A stretch of DNA of 64,000 nt from Candidatus Methanospirareceae archaeon (GCA_049975405.1 JBNGDK010000001.1:38593-102592), one strand, 5' to 3'. Counted from the first letter of the stretch, positions 4,420 to 52,918 are shown. Notes: generated from the sequence alone by a model not told the origin. Numbers and translations: made by a program.

Positions 4420-4590
4420 GATCACCTGCCTATCATTAATTGTAGCACCGGCGTCGACTTCGATTACGGGGATACCCATCAGATGAGAAGTTGACTTCCG
4501 CTACACTTCAGAAGAAGGTGATGGGGACACGAACCGAAGATTGTCGTGTCCGACTGGGAAGCAAAAAACCCAATCTGACGAGCCAGTAGA

Positions 4591-6144
<1,554 letters not shown>

Positions 6145-6226
6145 GCTGAAAGTATCGTCGGATTGTGGGTGAGCTTCTCAAAACTTTACATTATCGCATG
6201 GTGTATAGCTAGCTGGGAGATGGGCC

Positions 6227-6298
6227 GGGCTCGTAGATCAGTGGAAGATCGTCGCCTTTGCGAGGCGAAGGCCCTGGGTTCAAATCCCAGCGAGTCCA
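6227..6298 (+). tRNA. tRNA-Ala (anticodon TGC) in the 16S-23S spacer
   Basis: Sequence is GGGCTCGTAGATCAGTGGAAGATCGTCGCCTTTGCGAGGCGAAGGCCCTGGGTTCAAATCCCAGCGAGTCCA. The acceptor stem is 7 bp with a G3:U70 wobble, which is the tRNA-Ala identity pair. CCA is not encoded. Confidence 0.9.
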
Positions 6299-6456
6299 TC
6301 CATGCGTGGGACTGATGGTGAGGAAGCTGTATGTATGTAAATGCACCTAGCAACCCGGGTGTTGCTAGGGAAGTACCGATGGCGAGGCGTGGCCTCTGCC
6401 AGATGAGGTGTGTAGACGCACTTGACAACTCTGACATCCAATGGGCTTAGTGAGAC

Positions 6457-9385
<2,929 letters not shown>

Positions 9386-9535
9386 ATCTCGCTGAGCTCA
9401 GATGAAATCAGAGTTGCAAGTGCGTTTGCCCTTTTCCTCACCTTCTTATTTTTGTAAGAGCACGTAACCACGGTAGTGGAACTCAGGCACATAACCTATT
9501 TTTAGATCTCAGTGCTATCAATTAGCAAGAGTTGG

Positions 9536-9607
9536 GCCAGGGTGGCGGAGCGGCTACGCGGCTGACTGCAGATCAGCTACACCCCAGTTCGAATCTGGGC
9601 CCTGGCT
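9536..9607 (+). tRNA. tRNA-Cys (anticodon GCA) immediately downstream of 23S
   Basis: Acceptor stem is GCCAGGG/CCCTGGC. Anticodon stem is GCTGA/TCAGC with loop CTGCAGA. T-arm is CCCAG-TTCGAAT-CTGGG. Confidence 0.85.
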
Positions 9608-9844
9608 TCCCGGTATCTCCAGTGGATCGTTGGTCCGGTGCGTACTTCTTTCACTATACGTATAACGTTGTTCGTTGTGTGGTACGTGCCTCTTCGCACG
9701 AGATCGGGACGCCACTGCTTTTCCCGTTTAAAAACGGTTAATTCCCCTAAAAGACGGATAATACTCAGTTAATTTACGAAAAAAACGTTATTTTATCTCA
9801 AATACAAATTTAAACGCCTATAAACGCTCAGAATTAGGTGCAAC

Positions 9845-45849: not shown

Positions 45850-47085
45850 ATGAAAGCGAGCAGTGTTGGGGTTCCGTCAGATGATGAATACTCACGCTAC
45901 CTTCATGACCGCATTAAGCAACTGGAGGAGTCAAATAACCGGCTACGAGATCGACTGGAGCGTATGAATCGCGAAGGACGGTATTATGAGGATATGCGAA
46001 CGCGTTATGAGGGTGAACTGCGAAAGTTGCGGTCTGAGCTGGAGAAGTTGCGTGCCCCACCGTTGATTATTGGTACGGTCGTTGAGGTCATTGACGATAA
46101 TAAGCTGGTCGTGCGGAGCAGCACCGGTCCGCGTTTTGTCGTACATTACTCAACCCAATTCTGCGAGCCCCATAAACTCTTCGCGGGCGCACAGGTGGGC
46201 TTGAATCAGCAGTCACTCGCGGTCGTCAGTGTGCTTTCATCTGCAAAGGATCCCTCGGTCTACGGCATGGAGGTAATCGAATCCCCCGACGTTGATTATG
46301 GCATGATCGGTGGGTTAGAGAGCCAGATAGAGGAGGTAACAGAGATCGTTGAGCTCCCGCTTACCGATCCCGAACGGTTCCTGCGCATCGGTGTGGTGCC
46401 GCCGAAGGGCGTGCTTCTCATCGGCGAGCCCGGAACGGGCAAGACCATGCTCGCGAAAGCGGTGGCAAACCGTACTTCAGCCACCTTTATCCGCGTCGTT
46501 GGCTCTGAACTGGTGCAGAAGTATATCGGCGAGGGTGCCCGGATGGTGCGTGAGCTGTTCGAACTGGCGAAGGAGAAAGCACCTTCTATACTCTTCATTG
46601 ACGAGATCGATGCGATCGCGGCACGAAGGATCGAAGATGGTACTTCGGGCGAGCGAGAGGTGCAGCGAACGATGATGCAGCTCCTGGCAGAAGTGGATGG
46701 GTTCGATCAGCGTGGCGAGGTACGCATCATCGGCGCCACGAACAGGCCGGACATTCTCGATCCCGCACTGCTTCGACCTGGTCGATTTGATCGTATCATC
46801 CATGTGCCGGTGCCTGATAGACAGGGGCGGCTGGAGATCTTCAAGATCCATACCGGGCCGATGAAGCTGGCGAAAGACGTGGATCTCGAGTCCCTAGCGA
46901 AACTTACCGAGCATGCAACGGGCGCAGATATCAAGGCGATTGTGGTCGAAGCCGGCATGTTTACCGCACGCTTGGAGAAAAAGGCGGTTGGCATGGAGGA
47001 ATTCGAACGCGCGATCAAGAAAGTCAAAGAGAGCAAGCAGTGGGATTATCTCACCACAAAAGAAGCGGGCGTTATGTTCGCCTGA
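45850..47085 (+). CDS. pan: Proteasome-activating nucleotidase (AAA+ ATPase)
   Basis: Coiled-coil N-terminus, Walker [12 protein letters not shown] region. The C-terminus ends in a hydrophobic-Tyr/Phe-X-like tail (VMFA). Confidence 0.95.
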
Positions 47086-47234: not shown

Positions 47235-47825
47235 ATGCGAGCCACGCAATCGCACCTGGTATGGGCTGAGATAAGGCGAAAAGCGCTGCATGTCTGCGGG
47301 GTAATTATTCCCGTGCTCTATCTCATCTTTCCCAAGTACTGGATCCTTCTCGGCTTTCTTATCGGTTTCTGTATCCTCGTCCTCCTTGAATGGTTACGAT
47401 TTCGCGGACGCATTACGCTGCCCGCTCTCAGGGAACGGGAGCACCGAACCATCCCTGCCTACGTCTTCTTCGTCATCGGCGCATTCCTGAGTATACTCAT
47501 CTTCGAGAAAGGCATTGCGATCTCGGCGATCCTCATGCTGGCACTCGGAGATACCACCTCGGCACTCACCAGAGTGCTCATTGATTCAGAACCACGATGG
47601 CAGGAAGGCAGAAGGAAACGGCTGGAGGTGCTGCTCGTGATGTTCGTTACGTGCTTTGTAATTGGCTGGCTGATGCGCTTCTCGATACCCGTAGCGGCCG
47701 TCGGCGCGCTGGGCGCCACCGTGGCGGATGGGGTGCCACTGAGACTTCGTGGTTATTACCTGGATGACAATCTCACGATCCCGCTCTTTGCGGGCGCGTT
47801 GATGACTGTTGGAGCGATGTGGTAG
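47235..47825 (+). CDS. Integral membrane CTP-transferase-like protein (CarS / dolichol-kinase family)
   Basis: 196 aa and 5-6 TM. The composition resembles CDP-archaeol synthase / DUF46. Weak call. Confidence 0.35.
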   Translation: MRATQSHLVWAEIRRKALHVCGVIIPVLYLIFPKYWILLGFLIGFCILVLLEWLRFRGRITLPALREREHRTIPAYVFFVIGAFLSILIFEKGIAISAILMLALGDTTSALTRVLIDSEPRWQEGRRKRLEVLLVMFVTCFVIGWLMRFSIPVAAVGALGATVADGVPLRLRGYYLDDNLTIPLFAGALMTVGAMW

Positions 47826-47841
47826 GTACGGCACACACAAC

Positions 47842-48612
47842 TTAAAGGGCCGCGAGGGCGTTGAGGCGCCAGCCTCGTTTAGACATATATTCATGCGCCT
47901 GCATCAGTACGTCCGTCTCCGCATCCTTCTTGCTCTTAAACCACTGCCCACTCCGCACACCCTTCAAATCCCTGAAGTCGCCTGTTGCCGGGTCTTTGAT
48001 TGCGCACTGCTCGACCCGCCACTCCAGCTGGTGCGCTTCACCCCGAGACTCGTACGTGAACCTGATCTCGGGGTTGCGCCGATAGATCTCGCGAAATCTG
48101 TTCTCAAATTGGTTTCGCACGGGCAGGAACGCTTCTTCAATCGCGAGACGCTCCTGCAGCCGCGTAAATAGATCGAATTGGTTCAGAAACCGCTTCACCT
48201 CTCGCAGTCCTTCTGCCTCCCCGCTATCCCTGTAAATAGCACCGCAAATAGCCTCAAAGACGTCCGCAACCACTTTAGCGCTGATCTCAACGTGAGGTTC
48301 AGTCGCTCTGATAAACGCGGTCAAACCGAGTTGCTCGCCGAACGCTGCGAGCTGCTCGTTACGCTCGATCTCCGCCTTGAGGAACGTCATCTTACCCTCG
48401 TCCAGTGAACTCTGGGCAAATAGATATTCAGCTATGATCAAGCTGATAACGCGATCGCCGAGGAACTCCAGTTCCTGATAATTGGCGATCTCAGGGTGAT
48501 CTTGTGTGTACGAGCTTGTGGTGAGGGCAGTCACCAGCAACGTCTGATCTGTGAACTGGTAGCCGATCCGGTGTTGGAGTTCGGCGAGTGCGTTGGATGG
48601 AAGCTCACTCAT
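47842..48612 (-). CDS. rnc: Ribonuclease III (bacterial-type, catalytic domain + dsRBD)
   Basis: RNase III signature ELEFLGDRVISLIIAEYLF (ERLEFLGDA-like). 256 aa with a C-terminal dsRBD-like region. Confidence 0.8.
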   Translation of the reverse strand: MSELPSNALAELQHRIGYQFTDQTLLVTALTTSSYTQDHPEIANYQELEFLGDRVISLIIAEYLFAQSSLDEGKMTFLKAEIERNEQLAAFGEQLGLTAFIRATEPHVEISAKVVADVFEAICGAIYRDSGEAEGLREVKRFLNQFDLFTRLQERLAIEEAFLPVRNQFENRFREIYRRNPEIRFTYESRGEAHQLEWRVEQCAIKDPATGDFRDLKGVRSGQWFKSKKDAETDVLMQAHEYMSKRGWRLNALAAL

Positions 48613-48663
48613 AAACGCTCCTTATGGGCTACCTGCATGATTTCACCCGTACGAAACGAACCT

Positions 48664-48700
48664 AAAAATAAAATGAAGAAAGAGGCTGTTCAGGCCTCTT
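48664..48700 (-). terminator. Hairpin + oligo-T downstream of ftr (minus strand)
   Basis: Plus strand reads aaaaataaaatgaagaaAGAGGCtgttcaGGCCTCTT. On the minus strand this is a GC hairpin followed by a TTTTATTTTT tract. Confidence 0.4.
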
Positions 48701-48745
48701 CCGTTCTCTGCTCGGGGGACGGTTTGTTACAGCGTTGCTAATGCG

Positions 48746-52819: not shown

Positions 52820-52918
52820 CGCCGAGGAAGGGATTTGAACCCTTGAGTTCCTTTCGGAACACAGGCTATCTAGTCCGGAGAGCTCCAGGCCTGCGCCTTA
52901 CCGCTCAGCCACCTCGGC
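52820..52918 (-). tRNA. tRNA-Ser (anticodon GGA) with a ~15-nt intron 3' of position 37
   Basis: Reverse complement reads GCCGAGGTGGCTGAGCGGTAAGGCGCAGGCCTGGAG[CTCTCCGGACTAGAT]AGCCTGTGTTCCGAAAGGAACTCAAGGGTTCAAATCCCTTCCTCGGCG. 3-bp D stem, long variable arm, anticodon stem CAGGC/GCCTG. Confidence 0.75.

Follow-up and report, generated by a model that had tools for sequence, protein, structure and literature searches.

In general, archaea are described as lacking ribonuclease III (RNase III) (PMC8708148, PMC12817955), and archaeal ribosomal RNA (rRNA) is released through bulge-helix-bulge (BHB) motifs and the endonuclease EndA, in contrast to the bacterial use of RNase III (ribosome-biogenesis review PMC8339473). 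What, then, is an RNase III gene doing in an archaeal genome, where did it come from, and has it taken the place of the archaeal pathway? The question is raised by rnc, a gene on a 64,000-nucleotide stretch of DNA (here called the window; all coordinates are counted from its first letter) from a 'Candidatus Methanospirareceae' archaeon (GCA_049975405.1 JBNGDK010000001.1:38593-102592), which belongs to ANME-1c within the anaerobic methanotrophic archaea of group 1 (ANME-1). The window is archaeal, as it carries an archaeal 16S rRNA gene at 4636–6123 and an archaeal 23S rRNA gene at 6451–9387. An earlier reading made from the sequence alone (the sequence-only reading) had called the gene a bacterial-type RNase III acquired horizontally, on the premise, which agrees with reviews (PMC8708148, PMC8339473), that most archaea lack RNase III and process rRNA at BHB motifs. 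We suggest that rnc probably encodes a working class-1 RNase III of an archaeal Rnc clade common to ANME-1 (Methanophagales) and the Asgard archaea, that it has been inherited vertically within ANME-1, and that it acts in addition to BHB processing. [quoted passage not shown]

47842 to 48612, minus strand: rnc, encoding a 256-residue class-1 RNase III with one RNase III domain and a variant dsRBD; stop codon included.
48178 to 48549, minus strand: RNase III catalytic domain, residues 22–145, from Pfam (residues 22–140), an all-helical AlphaFold2 model and Foldseek.
48454 to 48474, minus strand: signature motif E47-L-E49-F-L-G-D53, read in the sequence, with E49 and D53 as metal ligands.
48253 to 48264, minus strand: second catalytic motif D117-V-F-E120, read in the sequence and conserved in the family.
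47872 to 48126, minus strand: variant dsRBD, residues 163–247, of alpha-beta-beta-beta-alpha topology with an insertion of about 12 residues after beta2, from AlphaFold2 and hhalign.

Judged from its sequence and its predicted structure, the rnc product is a genuine, intact class-1 RNase III. A listing of open reading frames (ORFs) gives one of 256 codons for amino acids that runs from ATG to stop with exactly the ends shown for rnc, and its translation is 100% identical to a public record (P0001) labelled 'ribonuclease III family protein [Ca. Methanospirareceae archaeon]'. Two Pfam models of the RNase III superfamily match residues 22–140 above their gathering thresholds, PF14622 with E 2e-22 (80.1 bits, cutoff 35) and PF00636 with E 4e-19 (69.6 bits, cutoff 27). 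An AlphaFold2 model derived from the family alignment (mean predicted local distance difference test score 88.8) shows an entirely helical nuclease domain, and Foldseek aligns this domain to the nuclease domains of the Aquifex and Campylobacter enzymes with a template-modelling score of 0.8 and a root-mean-square deviation of 2.5–2.8 Å. Searching PDB sequences with phmmer returned only members of the RNase III family (Drosha; Aquifex, E. coli and Thermotoga RNase III; Dicers).

The catalytic residues are also in place. The peptide that had been quoted as the canonical signature, ELEFLGDRVISLIIAEYLF, corresponds to residues 47–65 (window 48418–48474), and the second catalytic motif is ADVFEA, residues 116–121. 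Across a family alignment of 38 homologues (45–88% identity), every sequence has E49, G52, D53 and E120, and at least 90% have D117; D117 and E120 are furthermore invariant across the ANME-1, Asgard and bacterial sequences of a second alignment (A2). All four metal-binding acids, E49, D53, D117 and E120, are present, and we take them to be the equivalents of the Aquifex metal ligands E40, D44, D107 and E110.

The C-terminal third of the protein completes the class-1 architecture. Following a linker helix (residues 148–160), the AlphaFold2 model gives the order alpha (165–177), beta (183–190), beta (197–206), beta (213–215) and alpha (228–245). Foldseek aligns about 240 columns of the model to full-length Aquifex and E. 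coli RNase III (E down to 6e-12), and hhalign matches the C-terminal domain to bacterial dsRBDs with a probability of 90% and E 1.4e-6. The motifs expected to contact RNA, a GxxH loop (G191, H194) and a KKxAE helix start (K228, K229, A231, E232), are conserved in the 38 homologues. Topology (165–245), Foldseek, hhalign and motifs thus show one RNase III domain with one dsRBD C-terminal to it.

This domain order is that of bacterial class-1 RNase III (Aquifex aeolicus, 2NUG/1YYW; E. coli, 7R97; TIGR02191), which has the same ExxEFLGD and DxxE catalytic motifs, and phmmer pairs residues 9–207 of rnc with residues 4–192 of the Aquifex enzyme, for which the Foldseek alignment reaches the E of 6e-12 over some 240 columns. 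In contrast to the bacterial enzymes, with which identity is about 26%, rnc has a longer linker helix and the insertion of about 12 residues after beta2, has Q46 in place of the first signature glutamate, scores below the TIGR02191 cutoff, has a dsRBD that PF00035 misses, and is found in an archaeon with BHB-compatible rRNA stems. Mini-III of Bacillus, which acts in 23S maturation, resembles rnc in being a prokaryotic protein with a single RNase III domain and in the link to rRNA maturation. We rejected identity with Mini-III, which lacks a dsRBD, whereas rnc has one according to AlphaFold2 and hhalign. Taken together, these results bear out what had been read from the sequence about the protein itself: the canonical signature is there, the search that had been proposed for catalytic Asp/Glu residues and a second motif finds all four acids, with DxxE at 117–120, and the dsRBD-like region is confirmed by fold, Foldseek, hhalign and RNA-contact motifs. 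The term 'bacterial-type' holds for domain architecture; it does not hold for descent, as the nearest relatives outside ANME-1 are Asgard proteins.

That the relatives are Asgard emerges from several searches. In a word-indexed search, about 100 protein clusters of 245–265 residues and 52–89% identity form one ANME-1 family, after which scores fall steeply, from above 170 bits to below 100 bits. The named clusters are ANME-1, Methanophagales, 'Methanomicrobia archaeon', 'Halobacteriota archaeon' and the ANME-1 fosmid GZfos36D8. A tblastn scan of species-representative genomes, which had only four ANME-1 loci among the matches listed and is unfit for judging presence or absence, gave as the best full-length matches listed after ANME-1 mostly Asgard proteins, at about 30% identity over residues 9–246 (three Promethearchaeota, one Hodarchaeota, one 'Odinarchaeota' and one unclassified archaeon); three Clostridia proteins (L007, L009 and L011) are also full-length among the matches listed. 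The 'Candidatus Odinarchaeota' Rnc (L008, 2473–3135) has N- and C-termini nearly identical to those of the Rnc of a Promethearchaeota metagenome-assembled genome (L006, 7001–7663), and the Odinarchaeota label on its 3.3-kb contig may be a binning error.

The C-terminal domain is the more telling part. An unfiltered search with the family profile covered 1.84 billion representatives, in which all ANME-1 sequences collapse into one, and matches were rescored per domain. Among the best 150, only four proteins beyond ANME-1 (244–246 residues) match the C-terminal domain; three are about 50% identical to proteins of Asgard loci, and the fourth comes from a family named Sigynarchaeota, Lokiarchaeota and Promethearchaeota. 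A hidden Markov model (HMM) of the ANME-1 C-terminal domain scores Asgard proteins at 12–36 bits (18 bits or more for nine of the ten) and none of the bacterial proteins tested above 12 bits. With hhalign the ANME-1 and Asgard C-terminal domains align over 82 columns with a single one-residue gap (probability 98%, E 1e-13), and the insertion of about 12 residues after beta2 is common to ANME-1 and Asgard and missing in the bacterial RNase III sequences examined (alignment A2). Neighbour-joining trees (200 bootstraps, about 150–225 columns) unite ANME-1 and Asgard with 100% bootstrap support against a mixed bacterial sample; when the closest bacterial-type representatives are used instead, support is 98.5% with full-length sequences and 79% with only the nuclease domain. 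By its dsRBD insertion, its C-domain profile match and its grouping in these distance trees, rnc belongs to an Asgard-type Rnc clade, and ANME-1 Rnc is probably the sister of Asgard Rnc.

The Asgard proteins are 240–247 residues long, compared with 256 for rnc, have the same domain order and the same dsRBD insertion, and are likewise passed over by PF00035. Identity to them is only about 30%, with a glutamate where ANME-1 has Q46 and a linker that is shorter than the still longer one of ANME-1. Asgard Rnc (RNase III plus dsRBD) has been described beside asAgo and DExD/H helicase genes in some genomes (Bastiaanssen et al., bioRxiv 10.1101/2023.12.14.571608 = PMC11217426). ANME-1 rnc instead follows ftr, and the Asgard proteins compared here were chosen by sequence, not by asAgo linkage. 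No Argonaute or helicase gene lies beside rnc in the window or in the ANME-1 loci, and ten large ORFs of the window have no PIWI or helicase domain; an Asgard-like module of rnc, asAgo and helicase was thus set aside for the window and the ANME-1 loci, where the genes are not adjacent.

Two other affinities were considered and dropped. Drosha has the top whole-protein score among PDB sequences (E 2e-22), with rnc aligning to its RIIIDb at 50 bits, and two-domain proteins of the Drosha/Dicer type rank high in the profile search, yet they reach at most 91 bits per domain against 115–121 for single-domain prokaryotic proteins. Rescoring per domain showed that the high totals are two domains summed, which removes any special affinity to eukaryotic RNase III; unlike Drosha and Dicer, ANME-1 Rnc has a single RNase III domain and neither helicase nor PAZ. 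A viral origin was likewise abandoned, since scanning IMG/VR with the family profile gave only distant matches (at most 35% identity, nuclease domain only), mostly on giant-virus contigs.

Within ANME-1 the gene behaves as an old resident. We compared eight ANME-1 loci (the window, L002–L005, L082, L084 and L088). In all eight, ftr and rnc are adjacent; the ANME-1 loci have ftr upstream of rnc and an amino-acid kinase gene or pan downstream, and the Rnc proteins of the other seven are 53–60% identical to that of the window. The usual gene order, seen in the window and most of the loci, is Cbf5/TruB, S13, S4, S11, RpoD, CofC, Ftr, Rnc. The G+C content of rnc follows that of its host, being 0.41 in genomes of 0.43, 0.55 in the window and 0.61 in a genome of 0.59, and pairwise Rnc and Ftr identities correlate (r = 0.6). 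The ftr-rnc synteny, the roughly 100 clusters and the tracking of host G+C lead us to regard rnc as old, ameliorated and fixed in ANME-1. They support the view that the ancestor shared by the sampled ANME-1 lineages already had the gene and that inheritance next to ftr was vertical from then on, and purifying selection on the gene is evident.

Three observations on individual loci may be added. The Rnc proteins of L082 and L088 are 84% identical and the adjoining Ftr proteins just 71%, whereas elsewhere Ftr is usually the more conserved; this reversal is a hint that in one lineage ftr was replaced, is a paralogue or has recombined. The locus L002 is labelled 'Methanosarcinales archaeon', and its Ftr is 92.7% identical to that of 'ANME-1 cluster archaeon GoMg1' (L004). 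One family member carries a bacterial label (P0013, HUV03240.1, 'Desulfobacteria bacterium', L088/L089), but its contig bears the archaeal genes S13-S4-S11-RpoD-CofC-Ftr, and we discounted it as misbinned ANME-1.

Given the patchy distribution of rnc, horizontal acquisition by the ANME-1 ancestor is the most economical reading. The partner lineage either looks archaeal (Asgard) or is a common source not yet sampled, and transfer may have run in either direction. The claims that the sequence-only reading had made about origin therefore divide. An old, fixed acquisition in place of a recent island agrees with ftr-rnc adjacency at eight of eight loci, the core-gene setting and a G+C content that follows the host, and the synteny and conservation that it had proposed to examine are kept in all ANME-1 loci compared. 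Horizontal acquisition also survives as the most economical account; its bacterial source does not, because the closest hits are ANME-1 clusters and the next full-length relatives are Asgard proteins with the same dsRBD insertion. All-archaeal best hits had been named beforehand as the result that would speak against a bacterial donor, and this is what was obtained, with about 100 ANME-1 clusters and then the steep drop.

Several results weigh against our reading and need to be set beside it. Concerning the enzyme, the Pfam dsRBD model dsrm (PF00035) has no match in the C-terminal third of rnc; we nevertheless regard this domain as a dsRBD because of its AlphaFold2 topology, the Foldseek and hhalign matches and the conservation of the GxxH and KKxAE motifs. 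The TIGR02191 equivalog model aligns to residues 12–202 with 116.1 bits, below its cutoff of 166.25, in keeping with the public label 'ribonuclease III family protein' in place of 'ribonuclease III'. In the 38-sequence alignment, nearly all members have Q46 where Aquifex has E37, a position reported from mutational studies to be non-essential in E. coli. Concerning descent within ANME-1, the two most divergent family members, P0095 (L085) and P0098 (L090), with 53% and 45% identity, do not adjoin ftr and have neighbours that include a T2SSE-type ATPase and a cupredoxin; P0098 is without most of the dsRBD insertion. Both may come from a lineage outside core ANME-1. Concerning the Asgard affinity, distance trees on short alignments at about 30% ANME-1/Asgard identity are possibly subject to long-branch or compositional artefacts, and the nuclease-domain HMM does not discriminate, its best bacterial-type match scoring 121 bits and its best Asgard match 115.

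This last result bears most directly on the alternative that survives best, namely that a bacterial rnc, for example one like those of Clostridia or of a syntrophic partner, moved directly into the ANME-1 ancestor and that the likeness to Asgard reflects a separate similar acquisition or convergence. One RNase III domain plus one dsRBD is the standard bacterial architecture, some mesophilic Euryarchaeota are stated to have acquired RNase III from bacteria (Koonin, PMC4571572), the three Clostridia proteins match over their full length by tblastn, and with the nuclease-domain HMM the Clostridia (107–112 bits) and the best bacterial-type protein equal or exceed the Asgard proteins (104–115 bits). 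We nonetheless consider direct bacterial transfer unlikely, since no bacterial protein among the best 150 of the 1.84-billion-representative search matches the ANME-1 C-terminal domain, the dsRBD insertion is common to Asgard and missing in the bacterial sequences examined, ANME-1 and Asgard group together in the neighbour-joining trees even with the N-terminal domain alone, and the sole 'bacterial' label in the family (HUV03240.1) is on a contig of archaeal ribosomal-protein genes.

Much less probable is an ancestral archaeal rnc that descended vertically to both ANME-1 and Asgard and was lost in nearly all other archaea. Both carriers of the variant are archaeal and deeply diverged (about 30% identity), and the pattern inside ANME-1 looks vertical, as such descent would predict, but many independent losses would be needed across Halobacteriota, Thermoproteota and other phyla, the reviews give archaea as generally without RNase III (PMC8708148, PMC12817955), and the named family matches are solely of the ANME-1 type.

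If rnc is an archaeal gene long settled beside ftr, as we prefer, is it part of an ftr operon? Two elements between the genes bear on this.

48678 to 48702, minus strand: terminator-like hairpin and T-run just past the ftr stop codon, between ftr and rnc, from a terminator scan.
48618 to 48673, minus strand: putative rnc promoter and leader, with the TATA-like element TTTTATTTTT at 48664–48673 and an AGGAG ribosome-binding site at 48618–48622, read in the sequence.

An equivalent G+C-rich hairpin with a T-run follows ftr in all eight ANME-1 loci, and has the appearance of a conserved terminator serving a strongly expressed ftr. In the window, L002–L005, L082, L084 and L088 the hairpin is built on an AGAGG...CCTCT core that precedes the T-run. 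The AGGAG site lies 5 nucleotides upstream of the rnc ATG, and the A+T-rich element TTTTATTTTT is a putative rnc promoter, so that rnc is probably transcribed on its own. An ftr-rnc operon is disfavoured by the conserved hairpin and by this separate A+T-rich element with its ribosome-binding site. If rnc is indeed transcribed separately, its conserved adjacency to ftr is no evidence of shared function.

Whether RNase III has replaced the archaeal route of rRNA release can be judged from the flanks of the rRNA genes in the window.

4569 to 4600, plus strand: 5' strand of the 16S stem, with outer helix 4569–4583, central CAGU 4584–4587, bulge AGA 4588–4590 and inner helix 4591–4600.
6135 to 6169, plus strand: 3' strand of the 16S stem, with inner helix 6135–6144, central GCUG 6145–6148, bulge AAA 6149–6151 and outer helix to 6169.
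6412 to 6456, plus strand: 5' strand of the 23S stem, a canonical BHB, with central helix CAUC 6435–6438 and bulge CAA 6439–6441.
9382 to 9429, plus strand: 3' strand of the 23S stem, with central helix GAUG 9401–9404 and bulge AAA 9405–9407.

The minimum-energy fold of the 23S flanks is a canonical BHB (helix, 3-nucleotide bulge, 4-bp helix, 3-nucleotide bulge, helix) at -56.9 kcal/mol (z = -10.6), and its outer helix, in which 6412–6434 pairs with 9408–9429, has 22 bp. The joined 16S flanks fold at -35 kcal/mol (z = -6.5); drawn by hand, they form an outer helix, GC/GU, a 4-bp CAGU/GCUG helix and an inner helix, with the 3-nucleotide bulges AGA and AAA on opposite strands, in a register from which the minimum-energy fold is slightly shifted. 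The bulge(3)-helix(4)-bulge(3) arrangement is therefore found by minimum-energy folding for 23S and is compatible with the hand-drawn register for 16S. The pairing of 4591–4602 with 6132–6144 that had been pointed out around the 16S gene is real, and forms the inner helix (4591–4600/6135–6144) of this processing stem. Judged from the rRNA flanks, the archaeal rRNA-release route appears intact in the host, and since both 16S and 23S flanks are BHB-compatible, it has not been displaced by RNase III. After excision and ligation the spacer would still carry the 22-bp outer stem, which has a length that RNase III normally accepts and is possibly a substrate. That rnc is a non-catalytic RNA-binding or ribosome-associated protein like mitochondrial mL44, or else the main rRNA nuclease in place of EndA, is scarcely credible: a weak Pfam match to the mL44 endonuclease-like domain (PF22935, 35.7 bits), the position of rnc where a cluster of ribosomal-protein and RNA-polymerase genes ends and the long stems formed by the rRNA flanks would fit, but the four catalytic acids are kept throughout the family, the flanks of 23S take up a canonical BHB with which those of 16S are compatible, and the terminator-like hairpin parts rnc from the upstream cluster.

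We therefore return to a working archaeal RNase III additional to BHB processing, for which the following mode of action can be proposed. As in the homologous Aquifex and E. coli enzymes, a dimer would form through the RNase III domains of two subunits, and each active site (E49, D53, D117 and E120 with Mg2+) would cut one strand of double-stranded RNA (dsRNA), leaving 2-nucleotide 3' overhangs. The dsRBD would hold the RNA helix through alpha1, the G191-x-x-H194 loop and the K228-K229-x-A-E232 start of alpha2. A longer linker and the insertion of about 12 residues after beta2 of the dsRBD would mark the ANME-1/Asgard clade as a whole. The ANME-1 ancestor would have gained rnc, most likely by an ancient exchange with an Asgard lineage, in whichever direction, or from a common source not yet sampled, and the gene would have been inherited vertically since, keeping its place beside ftr where the S13-S4-S11-RpoD cluster ends. 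Expression would start from its own promoter and ribosome-binding site, past the terminator-like hairpin downstream of ftr. Rnc would not be the primary rRNA-releasing enzyme, since the 16S and 23S stems keep BHB-compatible sequences; its likely task would be general dsRNA processing, of sense/antisense duplexes, structured leaders and possibly the 22-bp rRNA spacer stem.

The surroundings of rnc in the window include ftr, cofC, a membrane ORF, pan and aMBF1. The gene had been placed between pan and ftr, which is correct on the ftr side; on the other side a 196-residue membrane ORF (47235–47825) intervenes, and pan (45850–47085) is one gene beyond. This multi-pass membrane ORF, on the plus strand between pan and rnc, has no Pfam or NCBIfam match. 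It is convergent with rnc, with stop codons 16 bp apart, so that the 3' ends of the two transcripts could overlap, and it is missing at the corresponding position in L002. The rRNA operon (4636–9610) has the order 16S, tRNA-Ala(TGC), 23S, tRNA-Cys(GCA), and no 5S rRNA was detected across the whole 64-kb window. At 52820–52918 on the minus strand, Rfam calls a tRNA spanning 99 nucleotides (48.9 bits) where ARAGORN makes no call; this is probably an archaeal tRNA with an intron, whose own splicing would require BHB/EndA.

Public records already label these proteins RNase III, including that of the ANME-1 fosmid GZfos36D8, and our literature search found no paper linking RNase III with ANME-1 or Methanophagales. 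The ANME-1 gene is thus one that is annotated already as an RNase III family protein and undescribed in the literature found, and it brings no new mechanism. What it does bring is an entire uncultured order of methane-oxidising archaea that keeps an intact rnc, contrary to the textbook generalisation. There is a good chance that ANME-1 rnc has its place beside Asgard Rnc and not with any of the bacterial groups sampled, and so links two archaeal lineages. An Asgard homologue has been proposed as part of a proto-RNA-interference module (bioRxiv 10.1101/2023.12.14.571608), and these nearest relatives are now discussed as precursors of Dicer. More speculatively, and with little expectation that all of it will hold, a single archaeal RNase III lineage, with a dsRBD of specialised form, may be common to ANME-1 and Asgard and have moved between archaeal phyla living together in anoxic sediments, giving ANME-1 an RNase III pathway on top of BHB processing. 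Were this true, candidate roles would be antisense and dsRNA surveillance, defence against a large virome and clearing of the 22-bp rRNA spacer stems. In ANME-1 the role of a dsRNA nuclease alongside rRNA release by BHB cleavage can be studied in a second archaeal setting, independent of the first, and ANME-1 Rnc adds a data point on the history of the RNase III domain before eukaryotes.

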